Below, one piece after another: positions 2,224 to 64,000 of a stretch of DNA of 64,000 nt. This DNA is from Bacteroidales bacterium (GTDB lineage Bacteria > Bacteroidota > Bacteroidia > Bacteroidales > P3). The notes beneath the pieces were generated by a model. The model was not told the DNA's origin. It saw only the letters and a program-made list of their open reading frames with translations, and made no database searches. The stretch spans positions 3,662 to 67,661 of the forward strand of contig JAGAYN010000044.1 of the NCBI GenBank assembly GCA_017940465.1, given 5' to 3'. The position numbers and the translations under genes were made by a program. Within the stretch, counting starts at the first letter, position 1. Every line of letters starts with the position of its first letter.

Positions 2224-2279
2224 CCATCAACCTCATATGACATCACAATTTGTGACCGCATAATGAAACACAACAACTT

Positions 2280-3091: not shown

Positions 3092-3865
3092 ATGAACGAT
3101 ATCTGGTTGAAATATTCTCAATATGGTGTTAGAGTATCTGTGTTGATAGGCAATCACAATATGGATAAGGACGACCGCTTTCTGGTTCCCTTCATTACAC
3201 GTCAGCGTAAATGGGGCCTGATGAACCGCAAAGGAGAACTGGTGGTGAATCCTGTTTATGATGCAATCTGTAATGACTGCCAAACGAAAGATGACCTAAT
3301 CATAGTGGGATTATTACATCCTTATGCGTTTTCTAAAGAAGATGGAACCATTGATGCGAGAGTTAAATATCACTATGGATTAATCCGCACAGACGGTACA
3401 ACGTTCTTGAATGTAAAATACAATAGTGTTACATTGGGTAGTTTGATAACCGTGATTGGTGATGATGGGTGCTTTGCAATGGATTACACCGGGAAGGTAA
3501 TTATACCCAAAGGAAGATATGCATGGATGGATGGCTTCGATGACGGGCTGGCTCGTGTGAATAAAACCATAGAAGGAAAAACAAAATGGGGTATTATTGA
3601 TTGCAACGGCGAAGAGGTTGCCCCTTTGGATTATGACAAAATTTGGAACTTTTATGGGAAAAATATGGACGGAACTAATTTTGAAAAGGATGGACAGAAA
3701 TACTATTTGAAGTTCGATTTGTTAAGACCTTTTGAGTATCAAAAGAAATACGAACTAACCGAGAGGCAAATCCGACAGAGGGAAAAAGGTGCATGGGACG
3801 AAGCAAAAGATATGTGGCTGGATGCTTTTGAGGGTGACCCTGATAATTATTGGAACATAGACTAA
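3092..3865 (+). CDS. WG-repeat (KWG) protein, cytoplasmic
   Basis: 257 aa with no signal peptide. Repeated units of the type KWGLMNRKGELVVNPVYD and KWGIIDCNGEEVAPLDYD. AT-rich codon usage unlike the flanking core genes. Confidence 0.65.
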   Translation: MNDIWLKYSQYGVRVSVLIGNHNMDKDDRFLVPFITRQRKWGLMNRKGELVVNPVYDAICNDCQTKDDLIIVGLLHPYAFSKEDGTIDARVKYHYGLIRTDGTTFLNVKYNSVTLGSLITVIGDDGCFAMDYTGKVIIPKGRYAWMDGFDDGLARVNKTIEGKTKWGIIDCNGEEVAPLDYDKIWNFYGKNMDGTNFEKDGQKYYLKFDLLRPFEYQKKYELTERQIRQREKGAWDEAKDMWLDAFEGDPDNYWNID

Positions 3866-3872
3866 TAAACAG

Positions 3873-4862: not shown

Positions 4863-4902
4863 AGGAATTGACCACCGTAAAGGAGTACGCTACACCTCGT
4901 TT

Positions 4903-5298
4903 ATGACGCCGAATACCTACGTGCCGTTAGTTGACACCACGCACACCGACCCCATAGACACGGGCGACGTGCGCATCACGCTGGTGGACGACGGCACGGC
5001 ACTGGTGGCCTACCCCAACCCCTTCCGCCAGAGGGTCACCATCCGAATTGAAAACTCCGACTTGAAAACCGTGAACGGCGTCGCCACCGCCATCCTCACC
5101 GACCTCTCCGGCCGCCGCGAGCAAGTACCCCTCACCCCGCAGGGCCACTCAAGCAATAACACAATAACGCAATCAAGCACCTACACCCTCGACCTCACCT
5201 CCCGCCCCCAATCCACCTACCTCCTCACCCTCACCACCACCACCGGCCACCAACACACCCTCCGCCTCCTCAAACAAGCAGACATCTTCGGAAGATAA
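4903..5298 (+). pseudogene. Orphan T9SS type-A C-terminal sorting domain fragment
   Basis: Encodes only a CTD-like segment (ALVAYPNPFRQRVTIRIENSDL, YTLDL, YLLTLTT, LRLLKQ). No signal peptide or functional domain upstream. 4903 is the first in-frame ATG beyond the preceding gene. A GC shift occurs just upstream. Confidence 0.55.
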
Positions 5299-5325
5299 AA
5301 CAATATACGTAAAAAACAATCAACT

Positions 5326-6390
5326 ATGGCGGACAACAAACCTACCAACAACGGCGATGCTCTGGATTTATTCCACGACGTATGTCAGATTATCGACGGT
5401 GTGCGCACCCGGGTGGCGGTGTATGTCAACTCCGAGGTGTGCCTCACCAACTGGCATATTGGCAAACGCATCAAAGAGGATGTCCTTTTCAACCAGCGCG
5501 CCGAATACGGCAAACAGGTGCTTAAGACGCTGTCCGCCAAGCTGACCGAACGCTATGGCCGCGGCTGGAGCCACAAAACTTTGCTGCATTGTCTCCGCGT
5601 CGCGGAGACTTTTACAGAAGATGAAATTGTGTACGCAGTGCGGAGACAATTCTCTTGGACGCATATCAAGACTTTAATGTATATAGACGACCCTCTGAAA
5701 CGCCGTTTCTATATGGAGATGTGCCAGATAGAGCATTGGGACACTCGTACTCTCGACTTGAAGATTGACAGCCAGCTCTACGAGCGCAGTGCCATCAGCC
5801 GCCGCCCTGCGGAGACTATCGAAAAAGAGTTGCAGCAGGTGTCCGAACAACAGACGCTGGTGCCCGATATGGTGTTTCGCAGCAGCTATTTCCTTGATAT
5901 GCTCGGACTGCCCGACATCTTCAGCGAACGCGACCTGGAGGAAGCCATCATCACACAGATGCAATATTTCATCAACGAGATGGGGTCCGACTTCGCTTTC
6001 CTTGCCCGACAGAAACGGATTACAGTGGATGCCACTGACTATTATATCGACCTCCTTTTCTATCACCGTGGACTGCGCCGCTTGGTAGCAATCGACCTCA
6101 AGCTGGGACGCTTCAAGCCAGAACACGAAGGGCAGATGCGCCTGTACCTCCGCTACCTCGACCGCAACGAGCGTCGGCAGGGCGAGGAGTCGCCCATCGG
6201 TCTCATCCTGTGCTCCGAAGGCAATACCGAACATATTGAGTATCTGATGCTCGACGAGGAAAGTCCCATCAAAGTGGCCCAGTACTACACCCAATTGCCC
6301 GACAAGAAACTGCTGGCCGAGAAACTGCAACGGGCTATTGCCATCGCTCGCGAACATTGTTCTCAAAATAACAAATACAACAAAGAATGA
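5326..6390 (+). CDS. DUF1016/YhcG-type PD-(D/E)xK nuclease family protein
   Basis: 354 aa. N-terminal block (VNSEVCLTNWHIGKRI, RAEYGKQVLKTLS, GRGWS) and C-terminal core (IDLLFYHRGLRRLVAIDLKLGRFKPEHEGQMRLYL) match this family as I remember it. Confidence 0.7.
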   Translation: MADNKPTNNGDALDLFHDVCQIIDGVRTRVAVYVNSEVCLTNWHIGKRIKEDVLFNQRAEYGKQVLKTLSAKLTERYGRGWSHKTLLHCLRVAETFTEDEIVYAVRRQFSWTHIKTLMYIDDPLKRRFYMEMCQIEHWDTRTLDLKIDSQLYERSAISRRPAETIEKELQQVSEQQTLVPDMVFRSSYFLDMLGLPDIFSERDLEEAIITQMQYFINEMGSDFAFLARQKRITVDATDYYIDLLFYHRGLRRLVAIDLKLGRFKPEHEGQMRLYLRYLDRNERRQGEESPIGLILCSEGNTEHIEYLMLDEESPIKVAQYYTQLPDKKLLAEKLQRAIAIAREHCSQNNKYNKE

Positions 6391-6442
6391 GCACAACAAC
6401 GACTAACAAATTAACAAATTAACGAATTAACAAATTCAATAA

Positions 6443-8389: not shown

Positions 8390-8603
8390 TTTCTGCTACT
8401 CCTGCTGGCCACCACAGTCAGCACGCAGCAGGCCCGCCGCTATTGAGCCGCCGGGCCACTCTCGTGGAACGCCTTCCACCAACACTTCTGGCAGCGCTAC
8501 CGCCTGCCAGCCTCTTGGCACCCCGTTCCTCCGAATTGTCTCGCTGGAGCATCGATGCACGCCTGATGCTGATGCGCAACAAATACGGATTCTTTTACTT
8601 TTT

Positions 8604-8878
8604 TTTGCCACGTCGGAAAAAGTTCGCATCTTTGCACTCGCAAAACCGATAGGACGGTTTGCCGAGAAAGTTGCATTATCGCCTTATTCCGATTGTGTGA
8701 ACCTAGACAATTTACACGTCATCCGTAAAGTTAGGAATAGAGGAAATCCGATATGCTCCCATGGATTGATATCCACCTGTGGGGCAATTCAGAATACCTT
8801 TATATTCACTTTACGGGGAAGTCTAGGCCCTCACACAAGAAGATAGAGACTTAATGGATGGCTCCACTTTCTTCGTTG
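8604..8878 (+). ncRNA. Conserved promoter + structured 5' leader element, copy A
   Basis: TTTG (8604-8607), 19 nt, CATCTTTG (8627-8634). Blockwise alignment to 58608-58893 and 61079-61365. Ends in AATGGATGGCTCCACTTTCTTCGTTG, 72 nt before the ATG at 8950. Confidence 0.6.
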
Positions 8879-8949
8879 TATTAATTCACTCGCCGAAGAG
8901 CCTGTTGGCAAACTAACAGTTGCGCACGACACGTACCAGTGACACATTT

Positions 8950-9951
8950 ATGACCCAAACACACAAACTCCTCACCCTGGCCCTCGCCGCCACCCTCGCC
9001 TTCGCAGCCTGCGACAAAGACGATAACTCGGGTAAACAAATTGAATGGATGGAGGATTATTACTACAGTTCCTCTAGTCGCTCTACCGATGGGCGTTTTC
9101 ACCGAACCAGATTCTCTTGGGAGGGAGGACAGCTTAGGCGGCTGGAGTATTTCGACGCCGACAATCAGCGGGTTATATACTACATCGAAATAGTCTACGA
9201 GGACGGCAAGGCGAAAGAGGTGCGCGGGTACGATGAGTCCGGGAAAGCATGGGAGTCTGCCACCCTCTCTGCCACCCTCTTCTACACGGATGACAAAATA
9301 ACGAGCATCCAGTCTTCTTCCTATGCCGTCACGTACGAATACAACTCCGCCGGCGAGCTGGTCAAAGTAACCGGGTCGGATGGCTCCACCACCACCTTCC
9401 TCTGGGAGAACGGCAACATTGTTGAAGAGCGCCATGAAGACAGAATCACGACCTATACCTACGACAACAAGACAAACCCATACCATTCGGCATGCATCGT
9501 TGCATACCTTGGTGAACCAGGCGCTCGAATGCTTTCCCGAAACAACATCGTCAGCGAAACCTACACAAGCGGAGACTACGAAAGCCGCGATGAGTATTCA
9601 TATACCTACGACGGCGACTACCCCACCACAGTAACATCCAACACCTCCGACGGAAAAGATGTTACCTACTTCCGCTATACCGACGGCAGCGGCATGTCCG
9701 CCCCGGACATGTGCCACATCAAAATCGAGGACGGATACGAAGACCATGAGAGTAGACCCTACTACGTATATGGCGTCGGCACCTATGCCAAAGGCGACAA
9801 GGTTATCATTAGCACAGATGCGGACTACTTCCACGACGACACCTTCTACATCTTCTCCCACTGGAGCGACGGCAACACCGACAACCCCCGCACCTTCACT
9901 GCCACCGCCGACGTCACCCTCCGGCCCGTCTACACAGCCGCCGAGTATTAA
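8950..9951 (+). CDS. Lipoprotein with YD/RHS-like beta repeats
   Basis: ATG 8950 gives MTQTHKLLTLALAATLAFAAC (lipobox). Repeat-like segments include YEYNSAGELVKV and YTYDNKTNPY. Paralog of 58974..59747 (shared FSWE block and repeat pattern). Confidence 0.8.
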   Translation: MTQTHKLLTLALAATLAFAACDKDDNSGKQIEWMEDYYYSSSSRSTDGRFHRTRFSWEGGQLRRLEYFDADNQRVIYYIEIVYEDGKAKEVRGYDESGKAWESATLSATLFYTDDKITSIQSSSYAVTYEYNSAGELVKVTGSDGSTTTFLWENGNIVEERHEDRITTYTYDNKTNPYHSACIVAYLGEPGARMLSRNNIVSETYTSGDYESRDEYSYTYDGDYPTTVTSNTSDGKDVTYFRYTDGSGMSAPDMCHIKIEDGYEDHESRPYYVYGVGTYAKGDKVIISTDADYFHDDTFYIFSHWSDGNTDNPRTFTATADVTLRPVYTAAEY

Positions 9952-9982: not shown

Positions 9983-10016
9983 GGCCCGCGACCCCGTCGC
10001 GGGCCTTTCTCTTTTT
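9983..10016 (+). terminator. Rho-independent terminator of the 8950 gene
   Basis: GGCCCGCGA / TCGCGGGCC stem followed by TTTCTCTTTTT. Confidence 0.7.
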
Positions 10017-10160
10017 GCATCCCCGGAGCACTCCTGCCAATGCCCTACAGGATAAAAAGAGGAGCAAAACCTATAGCATACAGCATACTGGCAATCAACA
10101 TGTTATACTGGTGCATTTTTCGGCCGTTTTCGGGTTTTTGTGCGAAAAACGGGCGGAGAT
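10014..10160 (+). repeat. Conserved 3' element, copy A
   Basis: GCATCCCCGGAGCACTCCTGCC, then a purine-rich box, then CATACAGCATACTGGCAATCAAC. Aligns with 59806-59950, 62910-63045 and, inverted, 21486-21612. Confidence 0.6.
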
Positions 10161-10264
10161 TCCACGTGCTGCACAGACAGCATGTATCATGCTGGTTTTC
10201 AATATATATGCGTATATTACATTTAAAAGGCAACGGCAATGCGCCGTATATTGTTTTTATTTCG

Positions 10265-10317: not shown

Positions 10318-11283
10318 ATGCAGTTACCCAAAATCCACTCCATCACGAAGAAGATGCTGGTTGCCTTGGTGGGCGGCTTTCTGCTCCTCTTCCTGCTGTT
10401 CCACATGACGGCCAACCTCTTCATCCTGCGCCACGACGACGGCGCATGGTACTCCGCCTTCTGCCACTTCATGGGCACGAACTGGGTGGTGAAACTGTTT
10501 GAAGTCGTCCTGCTGGGCGTCCTTGCGCTGCACATCCTGCTCACCCTCTGGCTGGCCTTGACCAACAGGCTGGCCCGCCCCGTGCGCTACAAGCAGCGCC
10601 AACGCTCGGAGACCCACACCACGTCGAAACTCATGATGTGGACCGGCATCCTCATCTTCGCCTTCCTGGTGATGCACTTCTGCCAGTTCTATTTTGTAAA
10701 AATCGGCTGGGTGAAGGGCGAATACATGGTGGAGGTGGAGAAGTTGCAGACCGATGAGGTGAACACCGTGCAGCAGTTCTCCATGCAGCAGGGGATGAGT
10801 CCGGAGGACTTTGTCTCCAGCCTCGAGGGGCAGCTGGCCATGTATGCCGACCAGATGCCGGCCGAGGAGTATGAGTCCATGGTGCAAAACATCGCCAACC
10901 TGCGCGGCGCCGTGCCGGTGGCCGGGCTGCTGTCCGACGCCGTCGCGAAAGGCCACCTGAGCGAGAACCGCAAATGGGTGCGCCACCTCGACTACGACCA
11001 GCGCCAGATGCTCAAGAAGACCGTCCCCGACTGCGGCGTCGAGCCCGACTTCTACTACATGAGCCGCCAGTTGTTCCACAACGCGCTCATGGTCATCCTC
11101 TACCTCATCGCCTTCGTGGCCCTCTTCATGCACCTCACCCACGCCTTCCCCTCGGTGTTCCAAAGCCTGGGACTGAACAACTACAAGTACAACAATTTCA
11201 TCGAAATCTGCGGCAAGATATACACCTGGGTCATCACCCTCGGCTTCGCCGCCGTGCCCATACTCGTCTACATCGGCCTGTAA
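10318..11283 (+). CDS. sdhC: Succinate dehydrogenase/fumarate reductase cytochrome b subunit (b558 type) with long hydrophilic loop
   Basis: Five predicted TM helices with His residues at 29, 72, 120 and 272. First gene of the CAB operon. Confidence 0.85.
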
Positions 11284-11317
11284 AATCTCAACTTTCACCT
11301 TTCAATTTTCAATTCGA

Positions 11318-13282
<1,965 letters not shown>

Positions 13283-13285
13283 GCC

Positions 13286-14041
13286 ATGCACTTCATTCTA
13301 CATATCTGGCGCCAAGAGAACGCCCGCGCCAAAGGGCACTTCGAGACCTACGAAATCGACAACATCAGCGCCGACTGCTCGTTCCTCGAGATGCTGGACC
13401 AACTGAATGAGAAGCTGGTCAATGACCATATCACCCATCCCGTCTGCTTCGACAACGACTGCCGCGAGGGCATCTGCGGCATGTGCGGCCTCTACATCAA
13501 CGGCCGTCCGCACGGCAACGACGACGGCGTCACCACCTGCCAGCTCCACATGCGCCACTTCCACGACGGCGACGAGATCTGGGTAGAGCCCTGGCGCGCC
13601 AAGGCATTTCCCATTATCCGCGACCTCGTGGTGGACCGCACGGCCTTCGACAAAATCATCCAGGCCGGCGGCTACATCAGCGCCACCACCGGCGGCGTGC
13701 CCGACGCCAACAACATCCTCGTGCCCAAGCACAAGGCCGACCAGGCCATGGATGCCGCCGCCTGCATCGGCTGCGGCGCCTGCGTGGCAGCCTGCAAGAA
13801 CGCCTCCGCCATGCTCTTCGTCGGCGCCAAGGTGAGCCACCTCGCCCTCCTGCCCCAGGGCAAGCCCGAAGCGCAGGACCGCGTCTACAAGATGGTCTGC
13901 AAGATGGACGAGCTCGGCTTCGGCGCCTGCACCAACACCTATGCCTGCGAGGCCGAATGCCCCAAGCAAATCAAGCGCCAGAACATCGCCCGCATGAACC
14001 GCCACTGGCTGGGCAGCCTGCTCGGCCGCGACCGCAACTGA
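13286..14041 (+). CDS. sdhB: Succinate dehydrogenase/fumarate reductase iron-sulfur subunit
   Basis: Cluster motifs [33 protein letters not shown]. Confidence 0.95.
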
Positions 14042-14045: not shown

Positions 14046-14155
14046 CACCCGGAAGGTATCCTATAGGTATCCCATAGGTATCCTGTAGGTATTTACTTCG
14101 ACTGTGAACCGATATGGCCCACTTCCGGACCACATTCCTCCGCCCGTCGAAAAAA
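14046..14155 (+). repeat. 11-nt tandem-repeat intergenic element, GGTATCC subfamily, copy 1
   Basis: Units GGTATCCTATA, GGTATCCCATA, GGTATCCTGTA, GGTATTTACTT (14055-14098), flanked by CCGGAAG and TTCCGGACCA. About 85% identical by eye to 51183-51285. Confidence 0.75.
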
Positions 14156-20607: not shown

Positions 20608-21423
20608 TTACGTCAATTCCCGTGAACAGATGTCCTGCATGACGAGGCCCGCGAGGGTGAAGCCGTAGATGGCTGTGATGTGGGCCAGGGAGCCGTTGAT
20701 CTGTGCCTTGGAGGTGCACCACTCGTGGTTGAGCAGGTCCTGCCGCCCCTCAACCTGTTCGGCCTTGGGACAGAGGCAGGCCGCCGTGCCGCACGAGCGC
20801 ACCGCCTGCCCCAGATTGGGCAGCACCTCGGGGCTCCACACGCACTGGAACTTCCGCTGCGGGAAGCGTTTCTGCCGACGCATCCTGCGACGCAGCACCG
20901 CCGCCAGCGGGCAGCCGTCGACCTTCCAGAACTCGCTGACGCGCACCTGCGTGGGGTCCATCTTCAGGGCCGCTCCCATGGAGCTGAAAAAACGCGGCGC
21001 GCCGGAAACAGTGGCGCGGATGATGAGCTCCAGCTTGTCCTTCAGGCTGTCGATGCAGTCTATCACGTAGTCATACCCCTCCAGGTGGAAGCTGTCGGCG
21101 GTCTCGGCGCAGAATATCTCCTGCAGGGCCGTGACATCGGCGTAGGGATTGATCTCCAGCAGGCGGTCGCGCAGGGCGTCCACCTTCACACGTCCCACGG
21201 TGCGGGTGGTGGCCATGCTCTGGCGGTTGATGTTGGTGACGCACACGCGGTCGGAGTCCACCACGGTGATGTGCCCCACCCCGCTGCGCACCAGGCTCTC
21301 GGCGCACCATGACCCCACGCCGCCCACGCCGAAGACGATGACCCGCGCCGCCCGCATCCGCTCCATCGCCGCCGCGCCCACCAGGAGCTCCGTGCGGTTG
21401 AGTATGCCTTTTTCTGTTGTCAT
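20608..21423 (-). CDS. tcdA: tRNA threonylcarbamoyladenosine dehydratase (ThiF/HesA family)
   Basis: VIVFGVGGVGSWCAESLVRSGVG and VVDSDRVCVTNINRQ. An alternative start at 21444 is possible. Confidence 0.8.
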   Translation of the reverse strand: MTTEKGILNRTELLVGAAAMERMRAARVIVFGVGGVGSWCAESLVRSGVGHITVVDSDRVCVTNINRQSMATTRTVGRVKVDALRDRLLEINPYADVTALQEIFCAETADSFHLEGYDYVIDCIDSLKDKLELIIRATVSGAPRFFSSMGAALKMDPTQVRVSEFWKVDGCPLAAVLRRRMRRQKRFPQRKFQCVWSPEVLPNLGQAVRSCGTAACLCPKAEQVEGRQDLLNHEWCTSKAQINGSLAHITAIYGFTLAGLVMQDICSRELT

Positions 21424-21485
21424 CCGATATATTTCTTTCAGCAACAGGGGGATAACGCCCTCGCGACGGCTTTATTGCGCAGGGC

Positions 21486-21612
21486 TCGATTTTTTGATTT
21501 TTTTTGCCCCGGAGGAGGAAAAATGCAGGATTACAACAGGCTGGAAACCAACATTCTGTATGCTATAGGTTTTGCTCCCCTTTCTATCCACCTGGTCTCC
21601 TCCAAGGGGGCT
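21486..21612 (-). repeat. Conserved 3' element family, copy D (inverted, not attached to a cassette)
   Basis: The reverse complement reads GGAGCAAAACCTATAGCATACAGAATG...CAGCCTGTTGTAATCCTGCA. This matches 10060-10090 and 59889-59910. Confidence 0.55.
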
Positions 21613-21674
21613 GCCGGGCGGCAGGCGGGGATGAACTGTTTTTCATCATCGCTTGCCGAATGCAAATAATTTCG

Positions 21675-30506: not shown

Positions 30507-30622
30507 CCGCGACTGGTCCGGATCGGTCCCGCCACCCGGACCGGCTCCCCACAGACCAACTCCGAGACAACTCCGTATCAACTCCGAGTCAACTCCGAGT
30601 CGACACCGACCCCCCTCCGGAG
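30507..30622 (-). repeat. 11-nt tandem-repeat intergenic element, CGGAGTTGA subfamily, copy 1 (inverted relative to 39424-39556)
   Basis: Units CCAACTCCGAG, ACAACTCCGTA, TCAACTCCGAG, TCAACTCCGAG, TCGACACCGAC (30556-30610). Flanked by CCGCGACTGGTCCGG and CCTCCGG. Confidence 0.8.
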
Positions 30623-39423: not shown

Positions 39424-39556
39424 CCGCCGGAGGAGGGTCGGAGTTGACTCGGAGTTGATACGGAGTTGTCTCGGAGTTGACTCGGAGTTGGTCCCCGGCA
39501 CGCATGTCCGGCTTCCGGAACCCGCCCGGAGCAGCCCCGGACCAATCGCGGAACGC
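39424..39556 (+). repeat. 11-nt tandem-repeat intergenic element, CGGAGTTGA subfamily, copy 2
   Basis: Units GTCGGAGTTGA, CTCGGAGTTGA, TACGGAGTTGT, CTCGGAGTTGA, CTCGGAGTTGG (39437-39491). Flanked by CCGGAGG and CCCCGGACCAATCGCGG. Confidence 0.8.
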
Positions 39557-42896: not shown

Positions 42897-44108
42897 TTAT
42901 TCAGGGCACCAGTTCGCCGGAAGGCGGTAGCGGGTGGTGTTGGTCCCGATGTTGTAGATGTAGCCCACGGTGAAGGAGGGCAGGCCGACGCTGTAGAACT
43001 TGCCCGAGGGACCCGGGCCGCCGCCGATGGGGGTGGGGACCATGATGTACTTGAGGTCGGCATAGAGGTCGCTCCGCCGGCTGAGATAGTAGCGGAAGAA
43101 GAGGCCGAAGTCGGCCGCCATGTCGAATTCCACGTTGTCATACCTCCACACAAGGCCGGCGCCGAGGTAGGGCATGATGTTGAATCGAGTGCCGCGGGCA
43201 AAGCCGAAGGCGTGCGAGAGGTTGACCATGAGGTCGGCATGGAGGTTGGAGAAGGCATAGCCGTCGCCGGGGCCGCCCGCGACGGTGTCGTACTGTTCGT
43301 GGCCCGTGATGCCGTTGAGTTCCAGGCGCAGCGTCCAGAACTCCGTGATGTTGCGCCCCACAAACACTTCCGGCGCCACGCCCCACATGCCGTCCTTGGG
43401 GTTGAGGTGCATCAAGTCGAAGGTGGAGATATTGGGCCCTATGCCCAGGCCGAGGAACCAGTCGTTACCCACGGCGCGCGACTCGTACTCGGTGCGGCGG
43501 TGGAAGGGCGTGTTGTAGAAGGTGCGGGTGAAGCCCAAGGCCAGGGAGTTCATGATGATGTTGCCGGGCGAACCGTCGAACTGCTGCGGGAGGAAGTAGG
43601 CTTTGTACTGCAAGAAGGTGAACCAGGATCTGGAGATACGGAAGTCGGCCTGCAGACCCAACATGAGTTGCACCTCATGGTCTACGCTTTCACCCTTCTT
43701 GTCCACCACGATGGAGTCGCGCCAGACCATGCCCAAGCCTATCATGGGGTATACCATCAGGCGCCAGTTGCGTATCCGGCTGAAGGTGGCGTTCAGGTCC
43801 CACAGAAAGTCGACGTTGGCAAAGGTATAGTCGGCCACCTCGTGGGTGTTGAGGTTGTTGCGCATCTGGTTCGGGCTGGTGTTGGTGATGATGTCGAGAC
43901 TCACCCTCAACGCCAGGGGGTTGGTTATCCACTTGCCCACAGCGATACCACCGGAAAAGCCTGGCGTGAGGCCATACTTGTTGTTGTAGAAACTGGCCCC
44001 TATCTGCCCGGAGACGAACATGTTGGCTCCGAAGGGGCTCCCACCCACCTGGGCATGGGCCGTAGCCAGCAGGAGCATGAGGAGGATGGATACAAGTAAC
44101 TTCTTCAT
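42897..44108 (-). CDS. Outer membrane beta-barrel protein with internal duplication (paralog 1)
   Basis: Signal peptide MKKLLVSILLMLLLATAHAQ. Two similar halves (VYPMIGLGMVWRD / IMPYLGAGLVWRYD). Paralog of 44130..45389. Confidence 0.75.
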   Translation of the reverse strand: MKKLLVSILLMLLLATAHAQVGGSPFGANMFVSGQIGASFYNNKYGLTPGFSGGIAVGKWITNPLALRVSLDIITNTSPNQMRNNLNTHEVADYTFANVDFLWDLNATFSRIRNWRLMVYPMIGLGMVWRDSIVVDKKGESVDHEVQLMLGLQADFRISRSWFTFLQYKAYFLPQQFDGSPGNIIMNSLALGFTRTFYNTPFHRRTEYESRAVGNDWFLGLGIGPNISTFDLMHLNPKDGMWGVAPEVFVGRNITEFWTLRLELNGITGHEQYDTVAGGPGDGYAFSNLHADLMVNLSHAFGFARGTRFNIMPYLGAGLVWRYDNVEFDMAADFGLFFRYYLSRRSDLYADLKYIMVPTPIGGGPGPSGKFYSVGLPSFTVGYIYNIGTNTTRYRLPANWCPE

Positions 44109-44129: not shown

Positions 44130-45389
44130 TTAAAAGGCGCACTCGGTGCTGTGGCTGGAGGGTTGGCGGTAGCCGGTGGTAGAGTGGTTGAAGTTGTGGA
44201 TGTAGCCGATGGTGAACATGGGGTAGCCCACCCCCAGGATATTGCCCGACGGGCCGTAGCCGCCGGCGGTGCGGGGGGTGACCATGATGTACTTGAGGTC
44301 CATGTAGAAGTCGCCTTCCGGACTGATGTAACGGCGGAAGAAGAGGCCCGCGTCACCGGCCACGTTGAAGACGGGGTGGCTGTCGTAGCGCCAAATCGGT
44401 CCGGCACCGATGTAGGGCATGATGGCCCACTTGCGTCCGGGGCGCGTCCCATCGAGACCCAACAGGTTGAGCATCAGGTCGGCATGGAGCATCGTGAACT
44501 TGTAGGGAAGGCCCGGCACGTATTCCGTACTAATGCTTCCGTCGGGGTTGAGCACCTGCTGCTGCTTGTAGCGCTCGCGCGCGAAGAGGCCCGTCAGTTC
44601 GAAACGTATGGTCCAGGCGCTGCTGTAGTTGCGACCCAGCATTACCTCGGGCACATAGTGCCACAGTTTCAAGGCCTTCTTGTCCAGAAAATACTCGAAC
44701 TCGAAACTGGAGAATAGGGCGCCGCCACCGAAGCCGATAAACCAGTCTTCCTGGATGTTGCGCGATTCATTGGCACGTCGTCCGCGGTAATAGGAGCGTC
44801 CCCAATAGTAGGAAAGGCCCAGATTGGCGTTGAGGAAGTTGTTGCTGCCATGCGATCCGTCGAACCCTTGAGGCAGGAAAAAGTTCTTCGCCTCCAGGAA
44901 GATGTCGAGGCGGCTGTCGCGCTCGCGGTGCCAAGCCAGCTGGAGACCCAGCATGGTCTGGAACTCATTGTCGGCCGACGCGAGGTTGGGGTCCGACCCG
45001 CGGCGCAGAAGACCCAGGCCCACAATGGGATAGATGCCCAGGTGGTTGCCGAAAAGGTGCACCCGCCCGAGAGTGGCAGGGATGTCCCAAAGGAACTGTC
45101 CACTCACCATGTGGAACACCACATCGCCGTCCAAACCGGCCAGGGTTTTGGAATAACTCGGCGCAAAGACGCCGTCATAGGCAAGGCGGAAGGCCAGTGG
45201 GCGAATGATCCACTGCCCCAGCGCAGCACTCGCGTTGTATCCCATCGTGGGCGAATCACCGGCATAGAGGTACATGGTCATGCCTCCATTCAGCGAGAGG
45301 AAAGCGTTCTCCTTGAGGGACAGCACCTTCTGAGCACCGACCCCTGCAGCCAGTCCCATGGCAACCAGTACTATCAGCAGTTTCTTCAT
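44130..45389 (-). CDS. Outer membrane beta-barrel protein with internal duplication (paralog 2)
   Basis: ATG 45389 gives MKKLLIVLVAMGLAAGVGAQ. Halves marked by IYPIVGLGLLRRG / IMPYIGAGPIWRYD. C-terminus resembles paralog 1 (KYIMV...GYIHNF). Confidence 0.75.
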   Translation of the reverse strand: MKKLLIVLVAMGLAAGVGAQKVLSLKENAFLSLNGGMTMYLYAGDSPTMGYNASAALGQWIIRPLAFRLAYDGVFAPSYSKTLAGLDGDVVFHMVSGQFLWDIPATLGRVHLFGNHLGIYPIVGLGLLRRGSDPNLASADNEFQTMLGLQLAWHRERDSRLDIFLEAKNFFLPQGFDGSHGSNNFLNANLGLSYYWGRSYYRGRRANESRNIQEDWFIGFGGGALFSSFEFEYFLDKKALKLWHYVPEVMLGRNYSSAWTIRFELTGLFARERYKQQQVLNPDGSISTEYVPGLPYKFTMLHADLMLNLLGLDGTRPGRKWAIMPYIGAGPIWRYDSHPVFNVAGDAGLFFRRYISPEGDFYMDLKYIMVTPRTAGGYGPSGNILGVGYPMFTIGYIHNFNHSTTGYRQPSSHSTECAF

Positions 45390-51182: not shown

Positions 51183-51285
51183 CTCCGGACGGGCAGCGAC
51201 CCTATAGGTATCCCCCAGGTATCCCCTAGGTATTTACTTCGACTGAGAACCGATATGACCCTTTATGGACCATCTGAAAAAAAGT
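51183..51285 (+). repeat. 11-nt tandem-repeat intergenic element, GGTATCC subfamily, copy 2
   Basis: Units GGTATCCCCCA, GGTATCCCCTA, GGTATTTACTT (51207-51239), then CGACTGAGAACCGATATGACCC and ATGGACCA. Aligns with 14046-14155. Confidence 0.75.
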
Positions 51286-57257: not shown

Positions 57258-57315
57258 ATTTTTTTTGAATTACAAACTAAAAATCACGATTTTATGCCAC
57301 AGCCACAAAAAAAAA

Positions 57316-57347
57316 TTTGGCCGGTTCGGAAAAAGTGCGTACCTTTG
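57316..57347 (+). promoter_or_regulatory. Promoter of tRNA-Cys (TTTG-N20-TACCTTTG)
   Basis: -33 at 57316-57319 and -7 at 57340-57347. The mature tRNA starts at 57371. Confidence 0.6.
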
Positions 57348-57370
57348 CAGCCGAAAACAATGCCAAAGAG

Positions 57371-57441
57371 GGTCGTTTGGCCGAGGGGCTAGGCACAGGT
57401 CTGCAAAACCTGCTACTCCGGTTCAAATCCGGAAGCGACCT
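57371..57441 (+). tRNA. tRNA-Cys (GCA)
   Basis: Hand-folded cloverleaf: acceptor GGTCGTT/AGCGACC, anticodon arm CAGGT-CTGCAAA-ACCTG (anticodon GCA), T arm TCCGG-TTCAAAT-CCGGA, discriminator U. CCA is not encoded. Confidence 0.9.
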
Positions 57442-58500: not shown

Positions 58501-58607
58501 GTTGGTTTTTGCCCTTGTAACGCACACCCCCGCCTGTTTATTGCCTACCGATATATGTTTTCATGCGTAGAATGACAGCTCACGGATCGCGGCAGCCAAA
58601 ATATTTT

Positions 58608-58893
58608 TTTGCCGTATGAGAAAAAGTTTGTACTTTTGCACCCGCAAACCGCCGAGACATGGTTTGCCGAGAAAGTTGCATTTTTCGCCTTATTCCGAGT
58701 TTGTGAACTTGGCCGTTCATCAATAATGATATGTAGGAATAATAGGGAAGATGAATGCTCCTGTTTGGAATGTATGCACATGAGATACATCCAGTGTGGA
58801 GCGAATCATTAAACCATTATTTTATATCATTGGGAGGCCAAGCCCACACAAACAAAATAGTGCCAAGAATGGATGGCTCCACTTTCTTCGTTG
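58608..58893 (+). ncRNA. Conserved promoter + structured 5' leader element, copy B
   Basis: TTTG (58608-58611), 19 nt, TACTTTTG (58631-58638). Conserved blocks and helices are described in the findings. Ends 80 nt before the ATG at 58974. Confidence 0.6.
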
Positions 58894-58973
58894 CGTAAAA
58901 CTATCCCTCCCGTGCCGTGGGGAACAACTCAACAGCGACGGGCCGATGCTTTATAACCGGCTACAAAAAACCA

Positions 58974-59747
58974 ATGAAAGTAATACGATTATTACTGGCA
59001 ACAACGCTCCTGGCACTCGGAGCAACCCTGACCTCCTGCTCCAACGACGACGACAAAGCCGGCATGGGAAAGGCCCTGACCAGGCTCACTCTCGAAGATG
59101 AAGACGGCTACTACCAATCCCTCCACTTTTCCTGGGAGGACAACAAGGTAAGCTTCATTCAAGTTTGGGAATCAAATCGTTATGGAAACATGCTTCTTTC
59201 TGCCGAACTGACGCCAGAATACCGCAACGGCAAACTGGAATCCTGCTATGCCTACAGTGCAGAAGACCGCTCCGGCATCACCCTGCAAGGCAACTACACT
59301 GGCAATCAACTCACTCAAGTACAGATTCCTCGCGAGGACCCCGCACTGCTCAGCTACGACACCGAAGGCAACCTCCGCTCCATTAACATCAACCACGACC
59401 AGCTCTCCTTCTCGTGGAGCGGCGGACGCATTACACAAATCATCGACCCTGATGGGCGTTCTGTTTCCGTGACGTGCGACGACAAACGCAACCCGCTGAA
59501 CGATGTCATCCGCTGCATCATAGGCTCTTGGAGCGCCACAATGGGCAATATCACACGCCTGGTAAACTACCGTGGCGAAACCGTCGACCTCCAGTACACC
59601 TTCGACGGCGACTACCCCTCGCAGTGCCGTGTCATTGTGGATGGGAAAGTAGGCGGCATCCTATATTACGAGTACGCAGACGGCAGCGGTTCGGCTCCGG
59701 CCAACCTTCCCGCCAACTACAGCAAGAAAAGCTGGCGCATCTTCTAA
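58974..59747 (+). CDS. Lipoprotein with YD/RHS-like beta repeats (paralog of 8950..9951)
   Basis: ATG 58974 gives MKVIRLLLATTLLALGATLTSC (lipobox). Contains HFSWEDNKVSF, YDTEGNLRSI and FSWSGGRITQIIDPDGRS. Confidence 0.8.
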   Translation: MKVIRLLLATTLLALGATLTSCSNDDDKAGMGKALTRLTLEDEDGYYQSLHFSWEDNKVSFIQVWESNRYGNMLLSAELTPEYRNGKLESCYAYSAEDRSGITLQGNYTGNQLTQVQIPREDPALLSYDTEGNLRSININHDQLSFSWSGGRITQIIDPDGRSVSVTCDDKRNPLNDVIRCIIGSWSATMGNITRLVNYRGETVDLQYTFDGDYPSQCRVIVDGKVGGILYYEYADGSGSAPANLPANYSKKSWRIF

Positions 59748-59774
59748 ACCTATCCGGCGCAGGCTGGAACGACA

Positions 59775-59809
59775 GGGACACCTATGCCTTGCAGAGGTGT
59801 CCCTTTTTT
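59775..59809 (+). terminator. Rho-independent terminator of the 58974 gene
   Basis: GGGACACCT / AGGTGTCCC stem followed by TTTTTT. Confidence 0.75.
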
Positions 59810-59950
59810 GCATCCCTGCCATCCTCCCGGAGCACTCCTGGAGGGTAAGGAGAGGGGAAGAAGAGGGTGCCTCTTACATACTGAAAAACAGCCTGTTGCA
59901 AAACTGCAACTTAGGGCTGTTTTTCGGTTTTTTTTCGGAAAATCTGCAAA
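59806..59950 (+). repeat. Conserved 3' element, copy B
   Basis: TTTGCATCCC...CCGGAGCACTCCTGGAGG, then GAGGGGAAGAAGAGGGTGCCTCTTACATACTGAAAAACA, then a hairpin at 59889-59919 with a T-run at 59920-59936. Confidence 0.6.
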
Positions 59951-59969
59951 GGATTGCGGGGGTGTGTCG

Positions 59970-60863
59970 CTAATGCAGCGGGATGTGGCGCAACTGCTTC
60001 ATCTTCTTTGCGTTGAGGTGTGCCTGCTGGATGGTGGCGGGTGTCATGGCGGATTGCTGGAAGCGGTCGTAGACGATGTCCTCGGCCAGCGGCGAGGGGT
60101 GCGAGAGGTCGGGGCCGTAGAAGCGGTAGTCGCGCAGCTCGTCCAGCACAATTTCGTAGGCGGGGAAGTAGGAAATCGGAATTTGTAAGCTGAAAATCGA
60201 GAGCAGCTCCTCCACGGCCATCAGCAGGGTGGCCTTGCTGAGCTGGTTGCCGTGGGCACCGTCGGCCAGGTGGCGTATGGGGCTGACGGTGAAGATGATG
60301 TCGAGTCCGGGATTGAACTCCCTGAGTTTCACCAGCAGGGGTTTCCAAAGGGCGACGATTTCCCCCACCGGCATCCGCCGCCGCTCGAACATCGCCGCCG
60401 GCAGTTTGTGGCAGTTGGCCACCACCATCCGGGCGCCTTCGCCTTTCAGCCGGGGGATGAGGCCGTAGACCCATGCCGTGCCGAAGGTCACCATCAGCAC
60501 CCGTGCCGTATGCAATGCCTTGTGGGATTGGTGGATGCGGCTGTTGCATACCTCAAGCGTCTCCTCTGCCGTGGGGCGGGAGAAGGAGCCGTGGTGGTGC
60601 CACGAATGCCAAAGGCCCTCGTGCTGCACCAGGTCCCTGTCCGTGATTTCCCTGTCCTCCACCATGCGCTCCAGCGCCGCCGCCACCGACGCGGGATTGT
60701 ACAGCGTCCCGAACGGGTTCCGCTCCACACGGAATCCCCCCTCCTCCATCCTCCGCCCGATGGCATCGGCAAAGCACGAACCCATCGTCACCACCCCGTC
60801 CTCCATACTGATTTTCAACGGCATCGGCGACACCTCCACCGTGGTATAAAGCTGCATCTTCAT
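59970..60863 (-). CDS. GSCFA family protein
   Basis: Contains the GSCFA motif (VVTMGSCFADAIG). The start is probably at 60863 (MKMQLYTTV); the ORF is open to 60884. Confidence 0.8.
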   Translation of the reverse strand: MKMQLYTTVEVSPMPLKISMEDGVVTMGSCFADAIGRRMEEGGFRVERNPFGTLYNPASVAAALERMVEDREITDRDLVQHEGLWHSWHHHGSFSRPTAEETLEVCNSRIHQSHKALHTARVLMVTFGTAWVYGLIPRLKGEGARMVVANCHKLPAAMFERRRMPVGEIVALWKPLLVKLREFNPGLDIIFTVSPIRHLADGAHGNQLSKATLLMAVEELLSIFSLQIPISYFPAYEIVLDELRDYRFYGPDLSHPSPLAEDIVYDRFQQSAMTPATIQQAHLNAKKMKQLRHIPLH

Positions 60864-61078
60864 ATCTACATAGTTTATCCGCATAACGCTATATCACAAT
60901 GATTTATTACCCAACTATGTGAAAATAGCCAGTTACATGCCATTGCCACCACTCGTTACATATTATTTCATTCTATACGCATGATTCACAGCAATATAAC
61001 ATTGAACGTGCCAAATCTGGAATTGAATTCCAAATTTAGCCAGTGTGGATAGCCATCCTCCTATTCGCAGAAATATTT

Positions 61079-61365
61079 TTTGTCATATCTGGAAAAGTTT
61101 GTACCTTTGCACTCGCAAACCGCAAGAGTATGGTTTGCCGAGAAAGTTGCATTTTTCGCCTTATTCCTGGCTTGTGAAACTTCGACAACTTCACTAATGA
61201 TATACGGAACAAAGGATAGATTGATGCTCCTGATATGGTATATGTATTTTCCTATGCAATACCTTTGTGGAGCGGTTCATTACACCTTTATTTTATATCA
61301 TAGGGAGTCGAAGCCCTCACAAGCAAGATAGGGTTGCAAATGGAAGGCTCCACTTTCTTCGTTGC
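61079..61365 (+). ncRNA. Conserved promoter + structured 5' leader element, copy C
   Basis: TTTG (61079-61082), 19 nt, TACCTTTG (61102-61109). Ends in AATGGAAGGCTCCACTTTCTTCGTTGC, 72 nt before the ATG at 61438. Confidence 0.6.
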
Positions 61366-61437
61366 AAAATATATCTCAACGTGCCTTGGGAAAAAAAAAC
61401 TGAACCGCCAACAGTATAAAAGAGGCATAGTAACACC

Positions 61438-62889
61438 ATGAAAAAAACACTGTTTTTATGTATGTGCATCATCATGTTTGGGATGTCTGCAACTGCTCAA
61501 TATCAACTAACGCAGAGTATTGAACGCAAACTCCAAGGTAATCAGGAGACACTTAAGACGTTATCCAGCAATGGCGATGCAGAGGCCACGTACATACTAG
61601 GGTATCGAATGAAACTACAACCCTACAGAGACACCCTAAATCAGATGGCAAAAAACAAACAACCTGATGCGATGTTTTTCAAGTGGCTTTCATACCAATA
61701 CGGGAATGCATATCGCAGAAAGAAACCACTACTAAAGAAAACTGCCAAAAGTGGAAACAAATGGGCATGCTACATAATGGGGGAGATAACTCCATACAAA
61801 AAAAAGAAAGCAAAAAAGCAATGGTACATGAAGGCTGCTGAGGATAGTTGTGCAGACGCCTGCGTTGCACTATTAAAGTACTATTTTCCTGAGAATCAAA
61901 AAGACAGCATTTATATAATGATCAACAAAACTCTGGAGTTCTGTAAAGATGATAATGAACTCAAACATTTTGAGTATGAACTCGGCAAGGAACTCTATCA
62001 TTGCCTTCCTAAAGATGAAAAGGAACGAGAAAAGTACACATACATTATGCCTGACATAACTCAATTTCTTACAAATTCGTTTAATAATGGAAACTCTAAT
62101 GCTGCAGGGGAACTAATGAAATGCAATTACGAAAACCAAGACTATGAGCAAAGCATATACTATACATTCCAATACCTAGAGGCGTTCAGCAATCACATCC
62201 AGGTGAAAAGAGAATGTTATCTTAATTTATCCCGATGCTATCTTAAGACTGGAAAACCACAACTGGCAGAATCTTATGGCCTAGCGCGATATGAACTTAA
62301 CCTTAACGAATTTAACAATGGGCACTTACATTATGGATATCAGGCGTCTACCTCTGCAAAATGGATGAGCGAACTATATACTGAACTTGAAAGAGAAGAA
62401 GGGGCGCGATTGTGGTTTGAACGGGCAAAAGAGATTGAAAAACAGGCAAAGAAGTTGGAAAAATTAGCAAAAGAAAAAGAAAGACAGGCCCGATTGGAGC
62501 GTATTGCCAACGCCCTAGACAATGTCAATACAGTCCTGTCGGCAGCCAATGATTTGGCGACCCAAATCAACAATTACAAAGCCCCGTCATCTGCCAGCAC
62601 AACATCAGATTATTCAGGTTCCTCGTCCTCTACCAGCAAAAGCAGTCCCGGGAGAAAACACGACCCATATGCCGCCTCACATGAAGCCAACAAGCAGAAC
62701 GCCGAGAATATCTACCGTCGCTACAGCAACCAACTAATCGACATGAACACCAACTACGAGCGTGATTACAACGACAGCCAGCGCCGACAGATTCAAGCCA
62801 GCATGAAAAAGATACGCACCGAGTGGGAGCAAAAGGGCTATACGTTCTGGCATTCCCCATGGGAGAATTGGGACGGCCATAAACAATAA
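61438..62889 (+). CDS. Secreted Sel1/TPR-like protein with coiled-coil and Ser-rich C-terminal region
   Basis: Signal peptide MKKTLFLCMCIIMFGMSATAQ. Sel1-like units, a KEIEKQAKKLEKLAKEKERQARLE coiled coil and an S-rich tract. Markedly AT-rich compared with its surroundings. Confidence 0.75.
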   Translation: MKKTLFLCMCIIMFGMSATAQYQLTQSIERKLQGNQETLKTLSSNGDAEATYILGYRMKLQPYRDTLNQMAKNKQPDAMFFKWLSYQYGNAYRRKKPLLKKTAKSGNKWACYIMGEITPYKKKKAKKQWYMKAAEDSCADACVALLKYYFPENQKDSIYIMINKTLEFCKDDNELKHFEYELGKELYHCLPKDEKEREKYTYIMPDITQFLTNSFNNGNSNAAGELMKCNYENQDYEQSIYYTFQYLEAFSNHIQVKRECYLNLSRCYLKTGKPQLAESYGLARYELNLNEFNNGHLHYGYQASTSAKWMSELYTELEREEGARLWFERAKEIEKQAKKLEKLAKEKERQARLERIANALDNVNTVLSAANDLATQINNYKAPSSASTTSDYSGSSSSTSKSSPGRKHDPYAASHEANKQNAENIYRRYSNQLIDMNTNYERDYNDSQRRQIQASMKKIRTEWEQKGYTFWHSPWENWDGHKQ

Positions 62890-62909
62890 TACGGATATCT
62901 CTCCCAGCC

Positions 62910-63045
62910 AGTCTCCTGCCACATACCTGGCAAAGACGAAGAGGGGAAGAAGAGGATACCCTTAACATACTGGAAATCAACGGGCCAAAATCTGACGATT
63001 TTGGCCCGTTTTGGGGTTTTTGAACGGAAAATTTCGAGGTTCGGG
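62910..63045 (+). repeat. Conserved 3' element, copy C
   Basis: CTCCTGCC...GAGGGGAAGAAGAGGATACCCTTAACATACTGGAAATCAAC, followed by a hairpin with a T-run. Confidence 0.6.
62982..63021. terminator. Terminator hairpin between the 61438 gene and dnaE
   Basis: GGGCCAAAATC / GATTTTGGCCC stem followed by GTTTTGGGGTTTTT. Confidence 0.7.
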
Positions 63046-63047
63046 GG

Positions 63048-64000
63048 CTAACTCTTGGGGATGGGGGTAATGTCGTATACACCAGCGAGTTGGAACAGCT
63101 CTGGGATGAATTCGCGGGCGGAGACGCAGAGGTCCTGCGATTCCATGGTGAGTTGCAGATCGCGGTCCGGATCCACCACCAATGCCTGCAGGGGGATGGT
63201 GCCCTTGTGGCGCTTGGCCAGCCGCTGGAGCGCCTCGCAGAATGCCTCGTTCACATCGGCAAGCATGAGCTTGAACATCAGGTGCCCCGTGTAGCGGTCC
63301 ATCACATTCCCGAGGGGCATCATGCTGGTTATCTTGAGTCTGGTGAAGCTACGCTCGGCATTGGTCTTCTTGTCGGTATAGTGGCTGGTGCGTACCGTGC
63401 CACGGCAGTAGACGAAGGTGTTGTTTATAAAGAAGTTGCGGTAGTCGGTATACTCCTGGCCGAAGAGTTTGAGCTCGTAACTGCCGCTGTAGTCGTCCAG
63501 CACCATACTGCCGAAGGGTTCGCCCTTCTTGCTGACCATCTCCTTGACATCGGAGACCATGCCTGCGAAGCGCACCTCGCACCCGGAAAGGGCTTCGAGG
63601 CTGTTCAGCTTGTCGACACCGATATTGGTATAGGCCTTCACCTCGTACTTGTAGTCATCCAGCGGATGGCCGCTGAGGTAGGTGCTGATGACCTCCTTTT
63701 CATAGCGGCAGCGTTCGATGTTGGTCCACGGCTGGGCTTCGGGGATGGGCGGATGTTCCTCCTCGGCCAGTTCGGTACTCATGCTGAAGATGGACATCTG
63801 GTTGGAGGCCGATCCGTCCTGCTGGCGGATGGCCCATCGGACGAGCTGGTCGAGGTAGGTGGGGGTGGTCTCGAGGTCGTTCGCCTTGAAGAAGTACTGC
63901 GCGCGGTGCATGGTTCCCACGCCGTCGAAGGCACCGGCCTTGACAAGCACCTCCATGTTCTTCTTGTTCACCGAGTGCATGTCGACACGCTTCAGGAAGT
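63048..64000 (-). CDS. dnaE: DNA polymerase III alpha subunit, C-terminal part (continues beyond window)
   Basis: VLVKAGAFD..., followed by an OB-fold region and C-terminal tail typical of DnaE. The frame is open to the window end. Confidence 0.85.
   Translation of the reverse strand, partial: FLKRVDMHSVNKKNMEVLVKAGAFDGVGTMHRAQYFFKANDLETTPTYLDQLVRWAIRQQDGSASNQMSIFSMSTELAEEEHPPIPEAQPWTNIERCRYEKEVISTYLSGHPLDDYKYEVKAYTNIGVDKLNSLEALSGCEVRFAGMVSDVKEMVSKKGEPFGSMVLDDYSGSYELKLFGQEYTDYRNFFINNTFVYCRGTVRTSHYTDKKTNAERSFTRLKITSMMPLGNVMDRYTGHLMFKLMLADVNEAFCEALQRLAKRHKGTIPLQALVVDPDRDLQLTMESQDLCVSAREFIPELFQLAGVYDITPIPKS

Follow-up and report, generated by a model that had tools for sequence, protein, structure and literature searches.

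Three genes in a 64,000-nucleotide (nt) stretch of a Bacteroidales bacterium (GTDB lineage P3; GenBank assembly GCA_017940465.1, contig JAGAYN010000044.1, positions 3,662 to 67,661 of the forward strand; hereafter the window, numbered from its first letter) are each preceded by a copy of a long 5' leader, and we show here that this leader is a conserved RNA with an interleaved multi-pseudoknot fold that is supported by covariation. Relatives of the leader stand in front of many unrelated, mostly secreted proteins in other genomes, and we consider it probable that this structured RNA acts in cis and thereby unites surface and accessory genes in a regulon.

Three leader-headed units in the window

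The plus strand of the window holds three co-oriented units, A, B and C, each running from a promoter through a leader of about 310-340 nt into an open reading frame (ORF) with a signal peptide, hereafter the cargo, and then into a 3' element that we call E3. The leaders (8601-8949 in A, 58605-58973 in B and 61076-61437 in C, promoters included) share 70-78% nucleotide identity in pairwise alignments, and the window contains three copies of each of the invariant cores GGTTTGCCGAGAAAGTTGCA and GGCTCCACTTTCTTCGTTG, where chance would give none. Since a sigma-70 promoter scan is unsuited to Bacteroidetes, it was replaced by a search for the pattern TTTG-N17-23-TAnnTTTG, which has seven sites in the window against 0.3 expected; the promoters of units B and C match it perfectly and that of unit A with one mismatch. 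The promoter of a tRNA gene (57371-57441, region 57314-57441) closely resembles the leader promoters, which suggests that these are of a strong, housekeeping type. The terminators at the ends of units A (9983-10005) and B are strong.

8604..8634, plus strand: promoter of unit A, TTTG ... CATCTTTG, one mismatch to TAnnTTTG, aligned to the promoters of B and C
8950..9951, plus strand: cargo A, a 333-amino-acid (aa) lipoprotein, J6I49_08245 ('hypothetical protein'), with weak YD/RHS and DUF4595 similarity
9983..10014, plus strand: intrinsic terminator of unit A, 10-bp stem GGCCCGCGAC/GTCGCGGGCC and T-rich tail
58608..58638, plus strand: promoter of unit B, TTTG-N23-TACTTTTG, from the pattern scan
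58974..59747, plus strand: cargo B, a 257-aa lipoprotein, J6I49_08450 ('hypothetical protein'), with an RHS/YD repeat match
59775..59809, plus strand: intrinsic terminator of unit B, GGGACACCT/AGGTGTCCC (59775-59803), 11-nt loop and T6, read from the sequence
61079..61109, plus strand: promoter of unit C, TTTG-N23-TACCTTTG, from the pattern scan
61438..62889, plus strand: cargo C, a 483-aa secreted protein, J6I49_08460, an ORFan

A preliminary description of the window, made from its sequence, had recognised five-part units of leader, spacer, ORF, terminator and 3' element, and all of these parts are present at, or a few bases from, the places where it had put them, including the terminators of A and B. 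It was also right about the cargos: A and B are distant paralogues of YD-like character (26% identity, E=4e-12), and C is unrelated to them and AT-rich (41.7% GC against 58.5% for the window). On the other hand, the 72-80-nt spacer between leader and ORF, which it had called non-conserved, turned out to hold a covarying hairpin (P8) and a conserved 3' module throughout the family.

The leader folds into an interleaved pseudoknotted RNA

RNAalifold, applied to a gappy MAFFT alignment of 78 leaders, recovered only helices P1 and P6, and the structure was therefore assembled by scanning 78 distinct leaders for covariation and mutual information, and tested by explicit pair counts. The tested fold comprises 64 pairs in 14 helices. 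In the alignment, 87.1% of the cells are paired (78.4% after shuffling), double-change cells number 482 (180 after shuffling) and the covariation score is 0.272 (0.142 after shuffling), and in none of the three measures did any of 500 shuffles reach the observed value; controls in which the partner was slid along the alignment paired in 35-46% of cells. Single column pairs illustrate how the sequence changes while pairing is kept: 130-293 in the kissing helix is GC in 35 leaders, CG in 20 and AU in 3 with no exception, 104-305 is GC21/AU20/UA20, 267-313 is UA34/CG28, and 378-391 in the P8 stem is AU18/UA16/GC9/CG8. The kissing pair differs among leaders A, B and C and yet is complementary in all three. 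When the kissing loops were tested without an alignment, a perfect 6-7-nt complement was found in 103 of 104 leaders, with a mean length of 6.68 nt compared with 4.93 nt when the partners were shuffled.

8640..8949, plus strand: unit A leader RNA; P1 8642-8660; closing helix CGAGAAAG 8663-8670 / CTTTCTTCG 8867-8875; P3 8682-8690/8734-8743; P6 8779-8785/8861-8867; kissing loops CCTAGAC 8702-8708 / GTCTAGG 8821-8827; P8 hairpin and module (i) ahead of the ATG
58644..58973, plus strand: unit B leader RNA; P1 58646-58665; closing helix 58668-58675/58882-58890; P3 58688-58696/58736-58746; P9 58699-58702/58850-58853; P5 58766-58791; P6 GTGGAGC 58796-58802 / GCTCCAC 58876-58882; P7 58831-58846; kissing loops CTTGGCC 58708-58714 / GGCCAAG 58836-58842; P8 58906-58921; module (ii) 58936-58962
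61115..61437, plus strand: unit C leader RNA; closing helix 61139-61146/61353-61361; P6 61267-61273/61347-61353; kissing loops CTTCGAC 61180-61186 / GTCGAAG 61307-61313

The RNA begins with a 5'-terminal hairpin, P1, that starts a few nt from the predicted transcription start. A first set of helices (P3, P5, P6 and P11) is crossed by a second, a four-way junction (P9, P4, P10, P7) with a 7-bp kissing contact between the P4 and P7 loops, and a long-range closing helix (CGAGAAAG:CUUUCUUCG) is stacked on P6 (GUGGAGC:GCUCCAC), its 3' strand being the U-rich tract that follows P6. A GAAAG segment could pair either locally with UUUUC or distally with CUUUC, both of which are invariant. Downstream, the P8 loop CG(A/G/U)GCC, typically CGAGCC, lies about 30-60 nt ahead of the start codon, and between P8 and the ATG stands one of two alternative conserved modules, (i) GTTGCGCCCGACACGTATTAGGG or (ii) ACCGACGGGCCGATGGTATATAACCGGC (8914-8940 and 58936-58962 in the window, for example), so that conserved elements of the leader reach to about 20 nt from the start codon. 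No hairpin with a U-tract was found between leader and ATG, where the start region is A-rich and variable. A pairing of the P8 loop CGAGCC with GGCUC in place of P6 was considered and found unsupported, as it would be disrupted by the U variant that the window copies carry.

The fold includes many G·U pairs, which are possible on the sense strand only. A leader peptide was rejected, because AUGGAUGG opens ORFs of 8-198 codons that have no conserved frame or stop, and in 12 leaders that were sampled without reference to AUGGAUGG its frame showed no synonymous (wobble) variation. The AUG in module (ii) was likewise rejected, being in frame with the cargo in some units only. The sense-only G·U pairs, the promoter directly upstream, the invariant wobble positions and the variable frames together indicate that the conserved entity is an RNA of the sense strand, as opposed to a peptide or a DNA site.

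A divergent form, subfamily 2, was seen at 1633-2016 in locus L136 and at 1605-1985 in locus L137, upstream of a BspA-type leucine-rich repeat (LRR) gene. It keeps the layout of the leader with other sequences (UCUGGUA:UACCAGA and GCGUGGG:CCCGCGC), its purine tract pairs with its U-rich tail (-11.6 kcal; median for comparison, -1.4 kcal), and it shares 3'-end sequence with leader B. Subfamily 2 was missed by the main-family profile, which means that the family is broader than sequence searches show.

A widespread and apparently undescribed leader family

A search with core 1 in one genome per species gave 10 loci in five metagenome-assembled genomes of uncultured rumen Bacteroidales, and a search of metagenome contigs with core 2 (motif 2) gave at least 120 loci with at least 104 distinct leader copies. 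About 118 of the 133 motif matches listed have the same element in the same orientation, most of them without core 1, and the window copies are thus one subfamily of a much wider family. Among the matches listed, the element always lies downstream of a TAnnTTTG promoter, the ORF starts at a median of about 55-80 nt past core 2 (range 50-140 nt), and the position and orientation between promoter and start codon are fixed across the roughly 118 loci.

Rfam 15 reported only tRNA in the whole window at the gathering threshold, and at E<=10 the B/C region, the A region and a low-GC family member (L048) gave only chance miRNA and snoRNA matches far below threshold. Nothing in plasmid and phage collections matches the leader, and viral contigs gave a single, doubtful match. 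No description of the family was found in the searchable literature, including Weinberg 2017 (PMC5737381) and a 2026 preprint, and the leader motif was not found in 200 of the 408 supplementary files of Fremin & Bhatt 2021. The candidate RNAs near LRR_5 genes in Prevotella in that work may overlap the leader family, as judged for the part covered from their description and not from their sequence. The family is widespread in Bacteroidales, found mainly in ruminant-gut material, and apparently undescribed.

Two individual loci deserve mention. At 3199-3318 of L008 (RUG13023) a leader copy is broken directly after core 1 by unrelated DNA with a direct repeat, TAATGGACAAAATTAATGG, which may be an insertion into the leader. 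At 13189-14324 of L034 two leader units with 137-aa and 255-aa cargos stand in tandem, 850 nt apart, the only array-like case that was seen.

Structured 5' leaders are a known kind of element. The closest analogues are the c-di-GMP-I (GEMM-I) riboswitches, which precede many unrelated surface and secreted genes, and such riboswitch-type leaders share with the present one the place between promoter and start codon, the fixed orientation, the covarying fold with a junction held by loop-loop contacts, several copies per genome and a heterogeneous, surface-enriched set of downstream genes. The leader described here differs from them in being larger (a core of about 250 nt), in its several interleaved pseudoknots and in having no Rfam 15 match, and neither a recognisable expression platform nor a metabolic theme was found. 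Its size, interleaved pseudoknots and heterogeneous, mostly secreted gene set are unusual. Comparative genomics has also uncovered large 'ornate' non-coding RNAs (ncRNAs) such as ROOL, GOLLD, raiA and HEARO (Weinberg et al. 2017, PMC5737381), most of which stand alone or are associated with phages or transposons. They resemble the leader in their abundance in rumen and gut metagenomes and in their complex, multi-junction pseudoknotted folds, whereas the present element consistently precedes a gene as its leader, has a promoter of its own and is followed by an ORF after 50-140 nt; it matches none of their Rfam models.

Alternatively, the element might be a gene of its own, a free-standing ncRNA placed upstream of other genes, acting in trans as a small RNA or being self-cleaving or catalytic, and ending at the U-tract after P6. 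In both subfamilies a U-rich tract comes after the GC-rich P6 (UUUCUUCGUU; in subfamily 2, CUUCUUUUUUU), and the degree of conservation and the pseudoknots are typical of ribozymes and large ncRNAs. However, that tract is already engaged as a strand of the closing helix, P8 and modules (i) and (ii) are conserved beyond it, almost up to the start codon, and orientation and spacing relative to the ORF do not vary among the roughly 118 loci listed. We thus regard a free-standing ncRNA gene as very unlikely.

Leaders precede accessory and mostly secreted proteins

All three window cargos have signal peptides. Cargo A carries the lipobox ...AFAAC with acidic residues past the Cys, and cargo B the lipobox …LTSC with an acidic NDDD past the Cys. 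None of the three has an informative match in Pfam, NCBIfam or PADLOC, C having none at all, and a comparison of cargo C with 5.8 billion proteins returned only itself and one partial MORN-repeat match. The 190-nt spacer upstream of leader C (60885-61075) has 36.6% GC, and together with the AT-rich cargo this makes the whole segment look foreign.

Across the family, a simple heuristic found signal peptides in 68 of 94 distinct downstream proteins (about 72%), and at least 23 have a lipobox. A Pfam survey of 75 cargos gave 43 families, most cargos having no match; the families include BspA-type LRR (10), InlB B-repeat (9), type IX secretion system (T9SS) tails (3) and radical SAM/SPASM (2), as well as YcaO, zinc ribbons and TM2. 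Clusters of cargos at 90% identity have 1-10 members each, and some units are small operons in which a protein of 56-69 aa is followed by lipoproteins. From the signal peptides and the Pfam survey it follows that the leader heads accessory, fast-evolving, mostly surface-protein genes. In L025, L037, L032, L109 and other loci, leaders stand before genes for enzymes resembling those of ribosomally synthesised and post-translationally modified peptides (radical SAM/SPASM, YcaO) or for small zinc-ribbon proteins, in place of secreted ones.

What the leader may do

From the family, its fold and its gene association we infer a regulatory role and, more tentatively, how it might work. A monocistronic gene, or in some genomes a short operon, would be transcribed from a Bacteroidetes promoter via the leader into an accessory or secreted ORF. 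The leader would act in cis, after transcription initiation, by binding a common factor, which may be a small molecule, a protein or the ribosome, and through it unrelated, fast-evolving genes for surface and secreted proteins, many within a single genome, would come under one control and form a regulon. Its output would be mRNA stability, processing or translation efficiency more likely than classical attenuation, since no terminator intervenes, the unpaired, A-rich start region is variable and the U-tract is used in the closing helix. As for the origin of the units, A and B would go back to a duplication, and B and C to an insertion or deletion between genes.

It is also conceivable that the leader senses nothing and is a passive expression module, a 5' stabiliser and translation enhancer that possibly recruits ribosomes in a phylum that lacks Shine-Dalgarno pairing and would serve only to keep expression of the downstream genes strong and stable. 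The position of P1 close to the predicted transcription start, the likeness of the leader promoter to that of the neighbouring tRNA gene, the lack of a terminator-type platform and a start region that is not sequestered in a conserved way would all agree with such a module. However, a multi-pseudoknot core of about 250 nt with many invariant unpaired nucleotides is far more elaborate than known 5' stabilisers such as the ompA- and aprE-type leaders, and the fact that accessory and secreted genes are found behind the leader, but housekeeping genes are not, suggests specific control. We consider the passive module unlikely, and a cis-acting leader that defines a regulon remains the reading that we favour.

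Several points weigh against this preferred reading. The transcription start site, the transcript ends and any regulation are predictions from sequence, and a clear expression platform was not found in the leader. For a metabolite riboswitch it would be unusual that the downstream genes share no biochemical theme. As the metagenome leader set was picked via motif 2, the conservation of that segment is partly built-in. P6 and the closing helix CGAGAAAG:CUUUCUUCG are invariant in the main family, and the only covariation that supports them comes from subfamily 2, with its two near-identical sequences. Finally, E3 lies next to leader units at a rate far above chance, and the two may thus be functionally connected.

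E3 is an intergenic repeat of its own, and the units are very probably not cassettes

The preliminary description had placed a conserved element at the 3' end of each unit. Its three copies stand, and a fourth, a solo copy on the minus strand, had been missed.

10008..10184, plus strand: E3 copy A3, nhmmer E=6e-31 and alignments
21459..21629, minus strand: E3 solo copy D3, with neither leader nor cargo, between a divergent ThiF/TcdA-like gene (20608-21444, minus strand) and a DPP-IV gene (plus strand)
59802..59980, plus strand: E3 copy B3, abutting the stop codon of the convergent GSCFA gene
59970..60884, minus strand: GSCFA-family gene, given for context; in L138 it lies within a compact dnaE-GSCFA-ddl operon
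62897..63071, plus strand: E3 copy C3; hairpin 62980-63009 with T-rich tail; abuts the stop codon of dnaE, which is convergent

A profile search showed that E3 is confined to the high-GC clade that includes the window, and with a refined profile we counted 26 copies in 18 loci (about one per 9.5 kb there), four of them in the window, whose density is of the order of one per 10-16 kb. More than 50 other leader units have unrelated 3' flanks. A leader unit lies at the 5' side of 18 of the 26 copies, and eight have no adjacent leader unit; of the 18, 13 are co-oriented downstream of the unit and in five the promoter of a leader in the opposite orientation abuts the 5' side. In loci that were not fetched via the leader, five of 10 copies adjoin leader units. 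Among loci fetched via GSCFA, the GSCFA|ddl gap of L135 and L136 holds E3 at the same site and in the same orientation as B3 with neither leader nor cargo, and L136 has a further copy after dnaE, at the same site as C3. Further copies are found in antisense orientation between housekeeping genes that run in one direction, or ahead of unrelated genes.

No consensus fold was obtained for the 26 aligned copies on either strand, E3 being conserved as sequence, and no clear terminal inverted repeats or target-site duplications were seen when the ends were inspected by eye. A structured RNA or attC-like site was accordingly rejected, as was a general terminator of co-oriented genes, many copies being antisense between co-directional genes. 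E3 resembles repetitive extragenic palindromic (REP) elements, bacterial interspersed mosaic elements (BIMEs) and miniature inverted-repeat transposable elements (MITEs) in being multi-copy, dispersed, intergenic, confined to one clade, present in both orientations and often near terminators or T-runs; it differs from them in lacking a palindromic consensus fold and in its distinctive purine tract, GGAAGAAGAGGGGAAGAAGAGG. E3 is a separate, clade-restricted, sequence-conserved intergenic DNA repeat and not part of the leader RNA, and the five-part look of the units in the window comes from the frequent presence of leader units at its 5' side. The earlier suggestion of a regulon with shared cis-regulatory ends is supported for the 5' end, where a structured leader precedes many unrelated and mostly secreted genes.

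In the neighbourhood of copy A3 we also observed that the sdhCAB operon (10318-14038) is inverted relative to L007. One breakpoint adjoins A3 and the other a 70-nt repeat (14051-14120) of tandem TAGGTATCC-like 9-mers, a second copy of which, 86% identical, lies 37 kb away at 51192-51261.

The preliminary description had likened the units to integron cassettes or to arrays known from gut Bacteroidales, with conserved flanks around exchangeable cargo, in which case leader and E3 would be ends recognised by a recombinase encoded elsewhere, or portable homology arms for swapping cargo, the two flanks should co-occur around one ORF and cargos should vary among strains. Several observations agree with mobility: units B and C are missing at the orthologous sites of L135-L138, where the dnaE-GSCFA-ddl operon is compact, in L136 the dnaE|GSCFA gap is occupied by another leader-headed unit that runs the opposite way, both cargo C and the spacer upstream of it are rich in AT, and most E3 copies have a leader unit on their 5' side. 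The flank families, however, occur independently of each other, as seen in the leader units without a conserved 3' flank and in the E3 copies without a leader, including the GSCFA|ddl solos of two relatives, and for this reason the cassette reading fails the test of co-occurrence. The arrangement is constant in 17 contigs with an identical GSCFA protein. E3 has no fold like that of attC sites or IS200-family ends, no recombinase or integrase was found in the window ORFs examined, including a 4.2-kb insert and a region bounded by inverted repeats (both described below), the leader is essentially unmatched in the plasmid, phage and viral collections named above, unit A is syntenic in at least five species with a homologous, fast-evolving cargo, and the conservation of the leader is explained by RNA structure. 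Mobile cassettes with exchangeable cargo are hence highly improbable, although the indels of B and C and the adjacency of E3 keep a weak version of the idea alive.

The comparison with the two known systems points the same way. Like integron cassettes, the units are short, carry one ORF each with unrelated cargos and have a recurring 3' element; unlike them, each has its own promoter and a 300-nt leader, they are dispersed between housekeeping genes with independent flanks, and there is neither an attC-like hairpin in E3 nor an integrase among the window ORFs examined. The recombinase-associated arrays of orphan immunity genes (rAID) that are reportedly found in gut Bacteroidales share with the units the bacterial order and orphan or hypervariable small genes. 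In contrast to rAID, the units do not form tandem arrays (two at most, in L034), have no adjacent recombinase and carry a structured RNA leader, and cargos A, B and C have no defence or immunity match in PADLOC, Pfam or NCBIfam.

The histories of the units differ. Unit A occupies the nqrF|sdhC gap of the window, L007, L013, L111/L068 and L114, where nqrF is 88-90% identical, and across at least five species its cargo is divergent and still the same YD-like lipoprotein; being syntenic with a recognisable cargo, unit A is old and vertically inherited. An old duplication that included leader and cargo alike appears to have given units A and B. The clean presence or absence of B and C between related species marks them as lineage-specific gains or losses, and they are indels within an ancestral dnaE-GSCFA-ddl operon. 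In L136 and L137 a subfamily-2 leader drives an LRR gene next to GSCFA, and the unit in the dnaE|GSCFA gap of L136, opposite in orientation to unit C, is headed by such a leader.

Other features of the window

Three further features were noted. A 4.2-kb segment (2223-6441) with genes for ORF6N-domain, WG-repeat and hypothetical proteins and for a YhcG/DUF1016 PDDEXK nuclease is missing from L007 and L013, which are syntenic with the window, and has the look of an accessory island. Two inverted repeats of 114 nt (30507-30620 and 39427-39540), 8.8 kb from each other, consist of tandem 10-mers (CAACTCCGAG...) and have a core of 42 nt that is perfectly complementary; the genes between them encode glycogen-synthase-like, DUF4270, MORN-repeat, RecQ and CHU_C (T9SS) proteins, and this segment could be invertible or mobile. 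A 180-nt direct repeat (42948-43127 and 44190-44369; 71% identity, 1.24 kb apart) probably reflects tandem paralogous genes.

Implications

Bacteroidales dominate gut and rumen communities, and their variable surface proteins, among them BspA-type LRR proteins, surface lipoproteins and T9SS cargo, mediate contact with hosts, phages and neighbouring microbes. It is possible, though we put it forward tentatively and with more doubt than confidence, that the leader is a new large functional-RNA class, be it a ligand-sensing riboswitch, a self-processing ribozyme or an element like an internal ribosome entry site (IRES) that brings in ribosomes where Shine-Dalgarno initiation is lacking, that governs this variable surface proteome, with E3 marking the sites of gain and loss. 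The units of the window illustrate that conserved flanks around variable cargo can arise without a cassette recombination system. The leader family would enlarge the short list of complex large bacterial RNAs, and a multi-pseudoknot leader of about 300 nt that is common to many genes per genome, and to hundreds across species, would offer a testable handle on the co-regulation of surface genes.

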